From assembly GCA_949298405.1 (NCBI GenBank), contig CASFWA010000001.1, positions 129,883 to 193,882 of the forward strand: a stretch of 64,000 nucleotides of DNA. The letters run 5' to 3'. The notes below the pieces were generated by a model, which worked only from the letters and a program-made list of their open reading frames with translations, made no database searches and had not been told where the DNA came from. Origin of the DNA: an uncultured Pseudomonadota bacterium (GTDB lineage Bacteria > Pseudomonadota > Alphaproteobacteria > Rs-D84). The stretch's first letter is position 1, and each line of letters opens with the position of its first letter. The translations under genes and the position numbers were made by a program. Positions 32,303-64,000 of the stretch are shown piece by piece.

Positions 32303-32328
32303 AAAAACGGGGAAAGTCCCCGTTTTTT
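32301..32328. terminator. Bidirectional terminator (orphan gene / serS)
   Basis: AAAAAACGGGGA-aag-TCCCCGTTTTTT. Confidence 0.85.
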
Positions 32329-33607
32329 AATGTTTGCCACCAATTTTAGTTCTGCCACCCATAAGAGGTTGTAATTTCTTTGGTATATTTACAGAACCAT
32401 CTGCATTTTGATGGTTTTCTATTACAGGTACCAATGCGCGTGGAACTGCAATACCTGTATTGTTTAATGTCGCAACAAATTTAACATCACCCGTTGCATT
32501 TTCACGATATCTGGTATTTGTTCTACGTGCTTGGAATGTACCAATCGAAGAACAACTGCCTAGTTCTTTGTACGCGTTTTCACTTGGAACCCATGCTTCA
32601 ACGTCGTTCATTTTTACTTTGTTGAATCCCATATCTCCTGTCGAATTAGCAATTACGCGGTATGGTAATTCCAGGTCCTCCATTACTTCACAAAGGTTGT
32701 TTAATATATGTTCATGCATTTCGTCAGACTGTTCTGGTTTGCAATATATATATTGTTCGACCTTATTAAATTGGTGGAATCTTGCCAGACCCCTTGTGTC
32801 ACGACCTGCGGCACCGGCTTCTTTGCGGAAGCATGGTGAGAATCCTGCGTATTTTATTGGTAGTGCATTTTCAGGTAGAATTTCACCACTATGTAGCGAG
32901 TTCAATATTATTTCTGCGGTACCTGCCAAGCATCTATCGGTATCTGTTAACATAAATACATCATTATTCATTACAGATAAATCAGAGCCCATAAAGTGAC
33001 CAGCGTCAAATATTGTTTGTGGTTTTGTAATGGATGGGCATTCTATAAATGTAAAGCCTTTGGATATCAATTTCTGTATAACATAAGTTTCTATTGCTAA
33101 TTGTAATTCCGCTGCTTCTCCCATTAAACAATAGGTACGTGTTCCACATATTTGACCGATTTTTTCTGGTAACCACCAATTGTTCATGTCTAATAAGTCC
33201 CACTGTGCACGCGGTGTAAAGTCAAATTTTGTCGGTTCGCCTACACGACGGACTTCCACATTATCACTATCATCTGCGCCAATTGGTGCATCTGGACTGG
33301 GAATTTGTGGAACGCGATGTAATAAATCATTTAGTTTTTCTTCCTTTTCGGCAAGTTCTGCTAAATCTGCAGCAATTTCTTCGCCTATTTTTTTCGATTC
33401 TGCGATTAATGGTGCTTTGTCTGCAGCAGTCGGAATTTCACGAGTTATTTTATTCTTTTCTGCGGTTTTTGTTTGTGTAATTGTTTTTAGTTCTCTTACG
33501 CGTGTGTCTAAGGTTAAGATTTCATCTACATGATCTTCAAAGCCTTTTACTTTACACGCATTCTTTACTGTGTCTGGATTTTCACGAATAAATCGAATGT
33601 CTAACAT
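32327..33607 (-). CDS. serS: Serine--tRNA ligase
   Basis: MLDIRFIREN, GTAE, CFRKEAG..GRDTRGL.R.HQFNKVE, ELGSCS, FQARR, TLNNT. Confidence 0.98.
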   Translation of the reverse strand: MLDIRFIRENPDTVKNACKVKGFEDHVDEILTLDTRVRELKTITQTKTAEKNKITREIPTAADKAPLIAESKKIGEEIAADLAELAEKEEKLNDLLHRVPQIPSPDAPIGADDSDNVEVRRVGEPTKFDFTPRAQWDLLDMNNWWLPEKIGQICGTRTYCLMGEAAELQLAIETYVIQKLISKGFTFIECPSITKPQTIFDAGHFMGSDLSVMNNDVFMLTDTDRCLAGTAEIILNSLHSGEILPENALPIKYAGFSPCFRKEAGAAGRDTRGLARFHQFNKVEQYIYCKPEQSDEMHEHILNNLCEVMEDLELPYRVIANSTGDMGFNKVKMNDVEAWVPSENAYKELGSCSSIGTFQARRTNTRYRENATGDVKFVATLNNTGIAVPRALVPVIENHQNADGSVNIPKKLQPLMGGRTKIGGKH

Positions 33608-33679: not shown

Positions 33680-33745
33680 TTAATAATTGAAACGTACCCC
33701 AAAAGGGGATGAGTAAGAACTAAAAAAGTAATATTCTTTTATCAT
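33680..33745 (-). CDS. Putative serS leader peptide MIKEYYFFSSYSSPFGVRFNY (21 aa)
   Basis: Hand-translated uORF ending 72 nt upstream of serS; Ser codons AGT TCT (TAC) TCA TCC; homologous to the thrS uORF. Confidence 0.8.
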   Translation of the reverse strand: MIKEYYFFSSYSSPFGVRFNY

Positions 33746-60042: not shown

Positions 60043-61615
60043 TGGTTTAAGTAAAGATTTAATTGTTCGTGTGTTGGGTGCAGAACCTAAATATACTTTG
60101 GCAGAATTGGAAGAAAAATATCCATTGCGTGATTTGCCAGATGGTGCGTTTGTGACGCGTTTCGCGCCAAGTCCGACAGGCTATATGCACATTGGGGGTC
60201 TGTATCAGGCCTTGGTTGATTGTAAGTTAGCACAGCAAACTGGAGGCGTTTTTATGCTGCGCATAGAAGATACGGATACAAAACGTGAAGTCGCAGATGC
60301 TGTTAAAATTATCGAAGATTCTATGCATAGATTTGGTCTTCAATATAATAAGGATGAAAAATATGCACCTTATTATCAATCTAAGCGTAAAGATATTTAT
60401 CACAGTGTCGCAGCAGATTTATTGGCACGTGGCTTGGCATATCCTTGCTTTTTGACTGCGGAAGACATGGAAAAAATACGCGAAAATCAAAAAGCAGCAG
60501 GTTTTGCAACTGGTATATACGGTGAATTTGCTCGTGATCGCAATTTAACAGAAGAAGAAATAATTGCGCACTTGGATAACGGTGAAGTACCGACGATTCG
60601 TTTGTATTCAATGGGTAACCCTGAAAATCGTATCTTCTGTAAAGATGCTGTTCGCGGTTCAATAGGTTTTCCAGAAAACAATGAAGATATTGTTTTAATT
60701 AAATCTAATGATGGACTTCCTACTTATCATTTTGCACATTTATGTGATGACCACTTTATGCGTACAACACATGTTGTTCGTGGTGAAGAATGGTTGCCTT
60801 CTTTCCCGTTGCATGTGCAATTATTCCGTATGATGGGGTGGCAGACACCTATGTATATTCATACATCTACTATTGATAAAATCGATTCGGAAACAGGTAA
60901 ACAACGTAAATTGTCAAAACGCCATGATCCAGAAGCAAATGTTGCATTCTTCTTGGCAGACGGTTGGCCAACAGAAGCGGTTTTAGAATATCTTGGAAAT
61001 ATCGCTGCGTCTGGTTACGAAGAAGCAAAAATGAAAGGGCAGGTTAAATCTATCTGGGAATATGAAATGCGCCCAAAGAAAATATCTATGTCTGGCGCGC
61101 TGTTTGATATGAAAAAGTTAGAATGGTGGGCAAAAGAATTTATTGCTTCTTTACCTGTTGATGAGTTAGTAAAACGTGTTCGTGATTGGGCGGATGAATA
61201 TGATGCTGTATGGGCAGCAAGAATCGCAGATAAGCCAGAATACTTAAAAAATATTTTGGCAATTGAACGCGATAATCCAAAACGCATTCGGAAAGACTTT
61301 ATTACTTGGAAACAAACTTTACAGGAAGTTGCTTATTTCTGGGATGATTTGTTTGTGCCTAATACGGAATATGTTTATAACAAAGATGTTTTATCTGCTT
61401 TCTTAGAAACTTTTAATGTGTCAGATGATAAAGACACTTGGTGGAACAAAATTGTCGCCATTGCTACAGAAAAAGGTGTTAAAAATGGTGACGTGGCGAT
61501 GAATTTGCGTGTCGCATTGACAGGACGCACAAATACACCCGACTTATATTCTATTATGCATGTAATGGGTGAAGAAAAAGTTATTGAACGTATAAAGGGC
61601 GCTATAAATGGTTAA
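60035..61615 (+). CDS. gltX: Glutamate--tRNA ligase
   Basis: TRFAPSPTGYMHIGG, LRIEDTD, PTYHFA..DDH.M..THVVRGEEW, KLSKR, LRVALTG. Confidence 0.96.
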   Translation: MRNGLSKDLIVRVLGAEPKYTLAELEEKYPLRDLPDGAFVTRFAPSPTGYMHIGGLYQALVDCKLAQQTGGVFMLRIEDTDTKREVADAVKIIEDSMHRFGLQYNKDEKYAPYYQSKRKDIYHSVAADLLARGLAYPCFLTAEDMEKIRENQKAAGFATGIYGEFARDRNLTEEEIIAHLDNGEVPTIRLYSMGNPENRIFCKDAVRGSIGFPENNEDIVLIKSNDGLPTYHFAHLCDDHFMRTTHVVRGEEWLPSFPLHVQLFRMMGWQTPMYIHTSTIDKIDSETGKQRKLSKRHDPEANVAFFLADGWPTEAVLEYLGNIAASGYEEAKMKGQVKSIWEYEMRPKKISMSGALFDMKKLEWWAKEFIASLPVDELVKRVRDWADEYDAVWAARIADKPEYLKNILAIERDNPKRIRKDFITWKQTLQEVAYFWDDLFVPNTEYVYNKDVLSAFLETFNVSDDKDTWWNKIVAIATEKGVKNGDVAMNLRVALTGRTNTPDLYSIMHVMGEEKVIERIKGAING

Positions 61616-62354
61616 AACAAAAAAAGTAGTTCGTGCAAAATTGAAAGCGTTAAAGTCCGATTCTAGGGGCAGTAGATTACTTAGAATTTTGCAGGCAACA
61701 GGATTGTTCCGTTGGGAAAGACCTTCTACTAAATCAGAAGAAGTTTTGAATATTCTAACGCATGGTATAGGTATAGGTTTGGCAATTGCAGGACTTACAT
61801 TGTTAGTCGTATTTGCTGCGCTGGCAGGTAATGCTTGGGCTATTGTATCTTGTGCTATATTCGGTCTGACAATGTTCACATTATATTTTGGTTCGACTAT
61901 GTGTCATGCAACAATCGGGCAAAAAAGTGAGTGCTTTTTTGAAGTGTGGGATAGTGTCGCGATATATGCTTTGATTGCAGGTACTTATACCCCGTTCTTG
62001 TTAGTTAATTTACGCGGGTGGACTGGTTGGACTGTGTTCGGAATACTGTGGGCAATCGTTATATTCGGCGCAATTATGAAAATCAGAAACCCAAGACAGC
62101 AACCAAAATGGATGGTCGCTTTATACCTTGTTATGGGGTGGACTTTGATATTTATTTTGCCTGCGATGCTTAGAAATATTCCAGCACGTGGATTGTGGTT
62201 CATTCTGGCTGGCGGATTGTCTTACTCTTTGGGGGTTATATTCTATCTGTGGCGTAAAATGAAATACTCGCACGCAATATGGCATCTGTTCGTTATAGGA
62301 GGAAGTGTATGTTTCTTCTTCGCCGTATTGTTCGGGTGCATTATCGATTTTTAA
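61608..62354 (+). CDS. Hemolysin III/PAQR family membrane protein
   Basis: EE.LN.LTH, IAGTYTPF, YLVMGW, GG..Y..G..FY, HAIWHLFV. Confidence 0.92.
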   Translation: MVKTKKVVRAKLKALKSDSRGSRLLRILQATGLFRWERPSTKSEEVLNILTHGIGIGLAIAGLTLLVVFAALAGNAWAIVSCAIFGLTMFTLYFGSTMCHATIGQKSECFFEVWDSVAIYALIAGTYTPFLLVNLRGWTGWTVFGILWAIVIFGAIMKIRNPRQQPKWMVALYLVMGWTLIFILPAMLRNIPARGLWFILAGGLSYSLGVIFYLWRKMKYSHAIWHLFVIGGSVCFFFAVLFGCIIDF

Positions 62355-62365
62355 GTCTTATAAAG

Positions 62366-62394
62366 TTGACTTATTTTAATAATAGTATTAATAT
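62366..62394 (+). promoter_or_regulatory. Promoter of the thrS leader
   Basis: TTGACT-17 bp-TAATAT, 10 nt before the leader ATG. Confidence 0.65.
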
Positions 62395-62404
62395 ATTTGT
62401 CAGC

Positions 62405-62461
62405 ATGATAAAAAATATATTGTTCTTCATTACAACTACAACAACCCCTTTGGGGGTGTAG
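62405..62461 (+). CDS. Putative thrS leader peptide MIKNILFFITTTTTPLGV (18 aa)
   Basis: uORF with five tandem Thr codons (ACA ACT ACA ACA ACC) ending 83 nt upstream of thrS; homologous to the serS uORF. Confidence 0.88.
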   Translation: MIKNILFFITTTTTPLGV

Positions 62462-62544
62462 TTTCTATTTGCGATTTCTTCGCACAGTGCAATAATCAAA
62501 ATAATCTATAAGTTTTAATTTATAAAAAAATAAAGGTTTTTATT

Positions 62545-64000
62545 ATGTCTTATCCAATTGAAACGATACGTCATTCTTTGGCTCATGTTATGGCAGCAGC
62601 AGTGAAAAATTTGTATCCAGATGTTAAATTTGCTGGGGGGCCTGCTATTGAAAATGGTTTTTATTATGATTTTGATACAGAACATCGCTTTTCAGAAGAA
62701 GACTTTGAAAAAATAGAAAAAGAAATGCGTGACTTAATCAAGTCTAATGGCAGATTCGAACAAAGAAACATTGATTTAAATGAAGCCAAAGAAATCTTTG
62801 CAAATCAACCTTATAAAATGGAATGGTTAAATGAATATGATGCCGCAGGTGAGGCTCTGTCTATTTATACGTTCCGCGATTTCGTAGATTTGTGTCGTGG
62901 ACCGCATGTTGAAAGTTCAAAAGATTTACCTCGTGACGGTTTTAAAATTCGTAATGTCGCAGGTGCTTATTGGAAAGGCGATTCCAAAAATAAAATGTTG
63001 CAACGTATTTATGTAGATGCGTTTGCAAGCAAGGAAGAACTGGACCAGCATTTGAAAAATATGGAAGAAGCGGCTGCGCGTGATAACCGTAAACTTGGTA
63101 AAGATATGGACTTGTTCCATTTTGAACCAGATTATGCGCCAGGTGCTGTGTTCTGGCATGATAAGGGATATAAGATTTATCGTAAATTGATTGAATATAT
63201 CCGTGGTCGTCAGGAAAAAGCAGGGTACTTAGAAATTTCTACACCGGCTGTTATGGATCGCTCTTTGTGGGAACGTAGCGGTCACTGGGCAAAGTACGGT
63301 GAACATAATTATTCTGGAAAAACGCAAGACGGTAAAACGTTCTGTGTAAAGCCTATGTCTTGCCCTGGTGGAATGCTTGTGTTTGGTCAGGGGATTAAGT
63401 CTTATAAAGATTTACCTATGTATTTGGCTGAATTCGGAAAAGTAAATCGTTATGAAGCGGCAGGCGGTTTGTCTGGATTAATGCGCGTTCGTGAATTTAC
63501 TCAAGATGATGCACATATCTTTTGCACAGAAGAACAGTTAGAAGAAGAAGTTGTTAAAATACTGCGCTTCATTAAAGATATTTATGGCAAGTTCGGGTTT
63601 GATAAGATATCCATGAAACTTGCAACACGTAAAGAATCTGAATTCCGTATCGGTTCTGATGAAGTTTGGGATAAAGCAGAAGGCGCTTTAAAGCATGCTT
63701 TGGATGCAAATGGTATCGAGTATGAAATTGCAGAAGGTGATGCCGCTTTCTATGGGCCAAAAATTGATAACTATTTGAAAGATTCTATGGGGCGCACTTG
63801 GCAGTGTGGTACGGTTCAGTTGGATATGAATTTGCCTGAACGCTTTGATTTGTCCTATATCGGTGAAGATGGTGAAAAACATCGTCCGATTATGCTGCAT
63901 CGTGCTATGTTGGGCTCTATTGAACGTTTTATGGGAATCTTGTTGGAATCAACAGGCGGAAATCTTCCTTTGTGGTTGTCGCCAGAACCTGTTGTCGTGA
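62545..64000 (+). CDS. thrS: Threonine--tRNA ligase, 5' part (runs off window end; short form lacking the N-terminal TGS domain)
   Basis: Hand translation MSYPIETIRHSLAHVMAAAV..GPAIENGFYYDFD, DLCRGPH, GAYW, KPMSCP, GLMRVREFTQDDAH, MLHRA. Confidence 0.97.
   Translation, partial: MSYPIETIRHSLAHVMAAAVKNLYPDVKFAGGPAIENGFYYDFDTEHRFSEEDFEKIEKEMRDLIKSNGRFEQRNIDLNEAKEIFANQPYKMEWLNEYDAAGEALSIYTFRDFVDLCRGPHVESSKDLPRDGFKIRNVAGAYWKGDSKNKMLQRIYVDAFASKEELDQHLKNMEEAAARDNRKLGKDMDLFHFEPDYAPGAVFWHDKGYKIYRKLIEYIRGRQEKAGYLEISTPAVMDRSLWERSGHWAKYGEHNYSGKTQDGKTFCVKPMSCPGGMLVFGQGIKSYKDLPMYLAEFGKVNRYEAAGGLSGLMRVREFTQDDAHIFCTEEQLEEEVVKILRFIKDIYGKFGFDKISMKLATRKESEFRIGSDEVWDKAEGALKHALDANGIEYEIAEGDAAFYGPKIDNYLKDSMGRTWQCGTVQLDMNLPERFDLSYIGEDGEKHRPIMLHRAMLGSIERFMGILLESTGGNLPLWLSPEPVVV

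Follow-up and report, generated by a model that had tools for sequence, protein, structure and literature searches.

A threonine-codon leader peptide before thrS in an Rs-D84 alphaproteobacterium: a probable ribosome-stalling sensor without a classical terminator, followed by a likely second promoter

The threonyl-tRNA synthetase gene thrS, located at the end of the window (the whole stretch of 64,000 nt analysed here), is preceded by thrL, an 18-codon leader ORF with five consecutive Thr codons. Judging from the sequence and its conservation, thrL very probably senses charged tRNA-Thr by ribosome stalling (probability about 0.9). It works like a ribosome-stalling attenuator, yet it departs from the classical family in two defining tests. 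We favour, tentatively and at slightly less than even odds, a chain in which a ribosome stalled on thrL would block Rho-dependent termination of the transcript started at the promoter P1, while a second promoter, P2, would provide the basal supply. The elements of the locus, and a related leader found elsewhere in the window, are as follows.

62366..62394, plus strand: P1, a sigma-70-type promoter site TTGACT-17-TAATAT (-35 at 62366-62371, -10 at 62389-62394), found by the window promoter scan
62405..62461, plus strand: thrL leader ORF of 18 codons (ATG at 62405, TAG at 62459-62461), read from the sequence and kept in all 29 same-genus loci whose upstream DNA is available
62408..62431, plus strand: U-rich (Phe-rich) codons preceding the Thr run, a candidate Rho loading stretch (53% U across leaders)
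62432..62446, plus strand: five consecutive Thr codons, the proposed sensor (2-8 Thr in all 71 distinct leaders)
62444..62457, plus strand: hairpin 1, beginning at the last Thr codon and extended to 62434-62463 in the present genome (fold, -7.9 kcal/mol)
62462..62468, plus strand: U-rich linker from the leader stop to P2 (52% U across leaders)
62469..62496, plus strand: P2, a second sigma-70-type site TTGCGA-16-TG-n-AATAAT (window promoter scan; 64 of 71 leaders)
62470..62484, plus strand: hairpin 2, over the -35 and spacer of P2, a candidate pause hairpin (fold, -6.0 kcal/mol, z -5.4)
62497..62544, plus strand: A-rich 5' UTR with a Shine-Dalgarno-like AAAGG at 62532-62536, read from the sequence
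62545..64000, plus strand: thrS, threonyl-tRNA synthetase without TGS by Pfam, 577 aa in the genome, running off the window
33680..33745, minus strand: sister leader with Ser codons and a hairpin built as at thrS, 138 nt upstream of serS (32327-33607, minus strand), from sequence and fold

A sequence-only reading of this DNA had described P1 with 10 nt to the leader ATG, the leader with its five Thr codons, the core of hairpin 1, hairpin 2 and a stretch of about 60 nt to the thrS ATG; all of these are present, the ATG at 62545 lying 60 nt past hairpin 2. The whole genome has 742 ORFs of 150 aa or more, and thrS is the only one of them with an upstream short ORF containing at least three consecutive Thr codons, so the leader is not a chance occurrence. 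The distance between the P1 -10 and the leader ATG falls within 6-10 nt in 65 of 71 leaders, and the P1 transcript is predicted to be leaderless or near-leaderless. thrS itself is preceded by a Shine-Dalgarno-like word in 71 of 71 leader loci. A gene for a haemolysin-III-related (HlyIII) membrane protein (61608-62354) lies directly upstream of P1. The window scan found no terminator between this gene and P1, so upstream read-through may also enter the leader. A 60-aa upstream extension of the leader ORF (62279-62461) was rejected, as it has no Pfam match and overlaps the preceding gene. Seven sequencing runs are listed, four of which, all in the form of contigs, were compared; the leader is spanned by X5 only, whose run type is not stated, and the RNA runs have no coverage of the leader.

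Relatives with about 90% identical ThrRS are assigned to Candidatus Enterousia, an alphaproteobacterial genus placed in the order Rs-D84, for which no amino-acid biosynthesis is reported in the available part of PMC12306168. Neither homoserine dehydrogenase nor threonine synthase families were found in the 898-kb, 99.5% complete genome of this gut bacterium; as judged from these two absent pathway families, the genome is unable to make threonine. Conservation of the Thr run in relatives, proposed earlier as a check, is clear: out of 30 same-genus loci taken, 29 had upstream DNA and all 29 carry the leader. It is also present in 15 of 20 further regions, which comprise all 7 taken from the genus and 8 of the 13 taken from other families; it is kept in four families outside the genus. 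The leader is missing in G037, G038, G043 and G052, while the G041 region is too short to judge; 12 of the 60 relatives lie outside this upstream comparison. Among 80 loci of ThrRS relatives, 34 have the leader (many of them repeating genomes of the same-genus set), 44 more distant alphaproteobacterial loci are without it, and two are without the N-terminus. For the anatomy, 77 upstream regions were reduced to 71 by removal of duplicates; since all were picked as leader-bearing, counts out of 71 describe the anatomy and not the spread of the leader, and related genomes are not independent observations. One genome (G028) has a second thrS copy, 55% identical, with a Thr leader of its own (L043, G028:C7:256930-257350).

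The Pfam search bears out the earlier statement that this ThrRS lacks TGS (only tRNA-synt_2b and tRNA_SAD are matched). The loss of TGS is incidental to the leader: G045 has both TGS and the leader, G052 has TGS and no leader, and G038 and G043 appear to be TGS-less and are without the leader. A link between the two was therefore rejected.

Hairpin 1 has counterparts in the his, ser, trp, val and arg leaders, and in these as in thr leaders the hairpin begins at the final cognate codon; a ribosome held up on the last two such codons would therefore open it. The hairpin is retained even where the peptide tail differs or the stop codon shifts into the loop (G040, G042, G046). The proposal that stalling melts hairpin 1 thus agrees with the position of its start, while the long extension drawn with it is peculiar to the present genome: extensions of about 3 bp are usual in the relatives vs 6 bp here. 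The 7-bp version of this extension does not hold as drawn, because it shares base 62457 with the A-U pair of the core, and the fold takes a 6-bp extension with a 4-nt bulge instead. Alignment A2 gave no covariation for hairpin 1, since the hairpin is invariant there; two-sided changes of the arms are confined to the his and ser leaders. In all but two of 67 leaders hairpin 2 has a folding energy of at most -2 kcal/mol (65 of 67), with several different pairs of complementary arms.

The absence of an intrinsic terminator, claimed in the sequence-only reading, holds in the strict sense, as the 8 nt past the hairpin-1 core contain at most four U in 66 of 67 leaders. It has to be qualified in that the window scan flags hairpin 1 (and no site at hairpin 2) as terminator-like and the 8 nt past the extended stem, that is, 4 nt further on, contain 5-6 U in 57 of 67 leaders; the extended stem has a mean of -10.2 kcal/mol. 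G042 and G045 have no U-run at all past hairpin 1. An antiterminator formed by the 3' arm of hairpin 1 with hairpin 2 was not found across 67 leaders: upstream pairing of hairpin 2 is 0.09 both with and without a modelled stall and exceeds 0.5 in 5 of 67. When a stall is modelled, less of the U-rich linker stays unpaired (a fraction of 0.56 instead of 0.73), and the change exceeds 0.2 in 27 of 67 leaders. Rfam gave no match near the gathering score at the thrS leader, no T-box was found there (the sole T-box match of the genome lies before aspS), and an anticodon-mimic loop for Thr (NGU) occurs in 8 of 67 hairpin-2 loops and in none of the UTR hairpins. A non-classical route, as suggested earlier, is in line with the lack of an antiterminator, a T-box and a tRNA-mimic operator at thrS.

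The earlier reading overlooked P2, and also that thrL belongs to a set of synthetase leaders spread over the genome. A TTGC or TTGT comes after hairpin 1 in 67 of 71 leaders, 11-13 nt after the G-run of the hairpin in 54 of 67. A TATAAT-like hexamer (at least 5 of 6 matches) is present downstream of it in 64 of 71, at 16-17 nt in 61, compared with a mean of 10.5 and a maximum of 21 in 500 shuffles. The P2 spacer is much less variable than the loop of hairpin 2 (sd 0.49 vs 1.88), and TTGC is a frequent -35 start in this genome (29 of 78 sites at spacer 17). An extended TG goes with every one of the 13 AATAAT variants, but with none of the 42 that read TATAAT. Seven changes of the TG/AATAAT state are needed on a tree quickly built from 56 ThrRS proteins, at least three of these changes being forced by well-supported branches; on this tree, compensation of AATAAT by TG arose on several branches. 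P2 is likely a promoter and would give a basal supply of thrS mRNA, although its -10 can alternatively be read as a site of sigma-dependent pausing. Four of the 71 leaders have no P2 (G040, G042, G045, G046). P2-like geometry follows 8 of 10 his leaders and 7 of 8 cys leaders, whereas ile, lys, met, ser and trp leaders are not recurrently followed by such a site in 12 genus genomes. In both thr and cys leaders a palindrome overlaps the -35 of P2. The distance from P2 to the thrS ATG varies between 20 and 107 nt, in contrast to the fixed distance from hairpin 1 to P2.

In the present genome, cognate leaders also precede serS, hisS, trpS, cysS, ileS, lysS and metG, while that of alaS is doubtful. 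When one fixed rule for cognate doublets was applied to 12 chosen genus genomes, they were found before thrS in 11/12, hisS in 10/11, cysS in 8/12, ileS in 12/12, lysS in 7/10, metG in 6/12, serS in 3/12, alaS in 2/12 and trpS in 1/12; counts of non-cognate doublets before synthetases in the same genomes were mostly 0-2 and at most 6. The alaS leader was not counted, since in G017 and G031 it resembles the tail of a longer upstream ORF. In another family, G044 has Val and Arg leaders (L386 and L394), each found in one of five genomes. No convincing leader was found in relatives for leuS (0/5), tyrS (0/3), proS (0/3) and glyS (0/5); the upstream regions of pheS and gltX were looked at in the present genome only. 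Rfam matches at 14 synthetase loci were limited to tRNAs.

The leaders are of different designs. Those of ileS, lysS and metG are followed by GC-rich hairpins with U-runs and look, by eye, like classical attenuators; the leaders with terminator hairpins in the present genome (G000) are the following.

C1:78692-78724: Ile leader before ileS
C6:37166-37198: Lys leader before lysS
C1:72175-72195: Met leader before metG

The thr, his, ser, trp, val and arg leaders, which have the hairpin at the last cognate codon, are without such a GC-rich hairpin and U-run. The cysS leaders lack a stable hairpin at their cognate codons. Several observations were made on these loci in passing. The Met leader before metG has only 5-6 codons, and the intact tRNA gene ahead of metG is immediately preceded by a degenerate partial copy of itself (L057:150-297, G000:C1). 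In family f6 the ileS leader (L221 and L228; G045 and G041) is not of the classical kind but follows the terminator-less design. The region upstream of aspS (G000:C1:120900-121098; L058, L353) is T-box-like, with a weak RF00230 match under the gathering score (30.8 bits, E 1.7e-5); the T-box core motif is found by pattern in 11 of 12 genus genomes, is visible in the twelfth and occurs also in G044. AlaRS (L056, alaS at G000:C6:47485-49599) has about 685 aa in the genus vs 860-900 in other families, so its C-terminal domain seems to be lost. The trpS product (L054) is 76-79% identical to those of two genus genomes and 31-36% identical to those of ten others (comparison of L118-L144), which suggests that trpS of the present genome has been replaced. 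L118 and L119 have no Trp leader, and G031 has a near-identical leader ahead of the other trpS type.

The base composition of the genome is relevant for the output step. Genes contain 54.4% purine (676 genes), and 54% purine is the B. subtilis figure tied to Rho avoidance according to the accessible text of PMC13323073. Terminators close to stop codons are used as an indicator of runaway transcription (PMC7858274, in part), and 61 of 96 terminator-like hairpins start at most 12 nt from a stop codon here (556 ORFs; a crude script with no E. coli control). By these two features, purine-rich genes and stop-proximal terminators, the genome looks runaway-like; in the available part of PMC13323073 the runaway or uncoupled state is not assigned to Proteobacteria. 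Both Rho and NusG are encoded. As leader-bearing relatives and those lacking the leader both have Rho (57 of 60 relatives, including all 44 near-complete ones), its presence cannot tell the two groups apart.

Leader composition does separate the two designs. The pyrimidine fraction of the terminator-less leaders is 0.59 (thr), 0.60 (his), 0.63 (cys), 0.62 (ser) and 0.51 (trp), compared with 0.40 (ile), 0.31 (lys) and 0.39 (met) for the terminator-bearing ones, but part of this contrast is forced, since Ile, Lys and Met codons are A-rich. Coding windows have a mean of 0.455, and only 4.3% of them reach 0.58. The 71 thr leaders contain 747 C vs 196 G and are more U-rich than C-rich. Upstream of the cognate run, U makes up 48-53% in thr, his, cys and ser leaders vs 9-30% in ile, met and lys leaders, and this U-richness could instead reflect selection for Phe residues. 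An excess of C is also required by B. subtilis Rho, according to the part of PMC13323073 available.

The chain we favour would run as follows. P1 would give a leaderless mRNA, which the ribosome enters at the first AUG, aided by a polymerase pause after hairpin 1. When tRNA-Thr is charged, the ribosome would finish the leader and depart, the bare U/C-rich and G-poor leader would load Rho, and transcription would stop at the pause after hairpin 2. When charged tRNA-Thr is short, a ribosome held on the last Thr codons would cover the Rho site and open hairpin 1, letting the polymerase continue into thrS. Transcripts from P2, being without the leader, would keep the essential thrS from being shut off. 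The stop codon lies no more than about 10 nt from the U-rich linker, so the ribosome could not finish and leave before the polymerase has passed the linker. The decision would therefore be made further on, at about the hairpin-2 pause, which favours Rho loading on the vacated leader.

Conservation, the cognate leaders, the hairpin start at the final cognate codon, the absent Thr pathway, the presence of Rho and NusG, the pyrimidine-rich leaders in a purine-rich genome with stop-proximal terminators and the recurrence of P2 are consistent with a Rho output backed by P2 and lead us to hold it with guarded preference. The analogy to cruR, in which a stalled ribosome masks a Rho site within the uORF (PMC12360218, as far as the available text goes), points the same way with similar reserve. 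Against it, no more than about 95 nt of RNA would separate P1 from the proposed pause, which is short for a Rho site, and this RNA holds a stable hairpin; a Rho site needs 60-80 unstructured nt. The fixed distance between hairpin 1 and P2 is the fact least explained by the favoured model. An 'inverse' attenuation, with an early stall allowing the terminator, is disfavoured, because what stays invariant appears to be the final pair of cognate codons, and these cover the hairpin.

Other outputs have to be weighed against termination by Rho. In the first, the P1 transcript would always be full-length, and occupancy of the leader would set its translation (through an anti-SD) or decay. We consider this unlikely, even though it requires no coupling and so suits a runaway-like genome. 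In the present genome pairing occurs between the 5' end and the region around the thrS start, and the modelled stall lowers the cost of opening the ribosome binding site from 6.7 to 3.5 kcal/mol. This release is not conserved, however: a gain over 1 kcal is seen in 15 of 71 native leaders vs 28 of 142 shuffled ones, with a mean gain of 0.60 (sd 1.58) in native leaders vs 0.17-0.20 in controls. A precedent is provided by the leaderless mycobacterial poly-Cys ORF (10.1101/834739, available part).

The fixed position of P2 suggests another possibility, transcriptional interference. Polymerases started at P1 could pause over P2 and block it, at its -35 after hairpin 1 and at its -10 after hairpin 2, and a stalled ribosome could free P2 by removing the pause hairpin. 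This would be a case of a leader peptide controlling a promoter, with polymerases parked on P2, one RNA-DNA hybrid length after the hairpin, until released by a stall on the Thr codons; we rate it as unlikely. It would account for the conserved 11-13 nt between hairpin 1 and P2 beside a variable P2-to-ATG distance, for the palindrome across the -35, and for the occurrence of P2 after thr, his and cys leaders and not recurrently after the terminator-bearing ile, lys and met ones; occupancy effects at tandem promoters are known (PMC8830795, in the part available). An unstalled ribosome would also open hairpin 1, however, so the sign of the control is not secured. Moreover, read-through P1 transcripts would themselves encode thrS, and the four leaders without P2 do not fit.

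A weak intrinsic terminator, aided by NusA or NusG, could be formed by hairpin 1, extended by a few pairs, and the U-rich linker, and be blocked directly by a ribosome on the Thr codons. The terminator-like flag of the scan, the 5-6 U past the extended stem, its mean stability and a similar U-rich word past the his hairpins agree with this, but the scarcity of U directly past the core and the lack of any U-run in G042 and G045 do not. With the stop codon at most about 10 nt from the U-run, stalled and moving ribosomes would probably act alike, and we find this mechanism quite improbable. Finally, that thrL is a chance ORF in AT-rich DNA with no regulatory function is hardly credible: although AT-rich DNA might produce such an ORF, only one of 742 genes has it, it is kept in four other families, cognate leaders precede other synthetases, and conservation refutes this explanation.

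A terminator-less Thr leader before thrS is already in print (PMC8079986, as partly available), and the sensor is expected biology. The Streptomyces lividans thrL-thrS described in the accessible text of PMC8079986 likewise has 18 codons, with Pro coming after the Thr codons, one hairpin and no U-run; its ORF is leaderless, as is predicted for the one here, and S. lividans has, as here, several synthetase leaders per genome (also alaL, trpL2 and leuL2). It differs in belonging to an actinobacterium and in having two Thr codons vs five here, and no second promoter is described in that text; the likeness is one of description. The mechanism is left open there (PMC8079986, available part). In cruR, tnaC, mgtL and corL a stalled or released ribosome decides Rho loading, as proposed here, but these systems sense copper, tryptophan or magnesium via arrest peptides or Pro codons, and in the part of PMC12360218 available none is described as controlling a synthetase or as having a promoter past the stop codon. 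The mycobacterial poly-Cys ORFs are leaderless, as thrL is predicted to be, and share with it cognate codons near the end and absence of an intrinsic terminator, and two codons can suffice; the tested case differs in hiding the SD, a pairing not conserved in the thrL set, and the targets are biosynthetic (10.1101/834739, in part). PMC1262725 predicted Cys leaders of the terminator-less kind, one of which has been shown to work at the level of translation (10.1101/834739), both according to the portions available.

E. coli thrL and pheM-pheST are classical leader-peptide attenuators, in which a run of cognate codons is sensed by the ribosome. The thrS leader has the cognate run in common with these, but is without a U-run terminator, antiterminator pairing or an SD of its own and has a second promoter in addition; the ileS, lysS and metG leaders of the present genome resemble the classical type. 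The E. coli thrS operator (PMC7373986, accessible text) has the same target gene and purpose, while here there is no conserved anticodon-mimic loop and ThrRS is without TGS. The same target and purpose apply to the T-boxes of Firmicutes (PMC2965389, in part), with no T-box match at thrS here. Leaders of hisS and leader genes in general are covered by PMC2965389 and PMC4833913, as far as available. Our literature search, with subscription papers and supplements outside it, found no paper on synthetase leaders of Rs-D84 or on a leader ORF combined with a second promoter. A published prediction of thrS leaders in proteobacteria, mentioned in the sequence-only reading, was not found in the search, which left supplementary gene lists aside; Vitreschak 2004 and Lopatovskaya 2010 reportedly contain such predictions.

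It is P2, together with the runaway-like background and the existence of two leader classes, that makes the output step testable. The lineage offers dozens of natural variants together with an internal contrast between terminator-bearing Ile, Lys and Met leaders and pyrimidine-rich Thr, His and Cys leaders with a second promoter, and the leader modules fit within about 180 nt and are clonable. If control of P2 by the leader were true, a leader-over-promoter module would have been reused for the Thr, His and Cys synthetases, in an alphaproteobacterium with RNA polymerase outrunning the ribosomes. The system bears on how sensing by ribosomes can work if transcription and translation are uncoupled. 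With about eight such putative sensors and a T-box in a 0.9-Mb amino-acid auxotroph, control of the synthetases appears to survive strong genome reduction.
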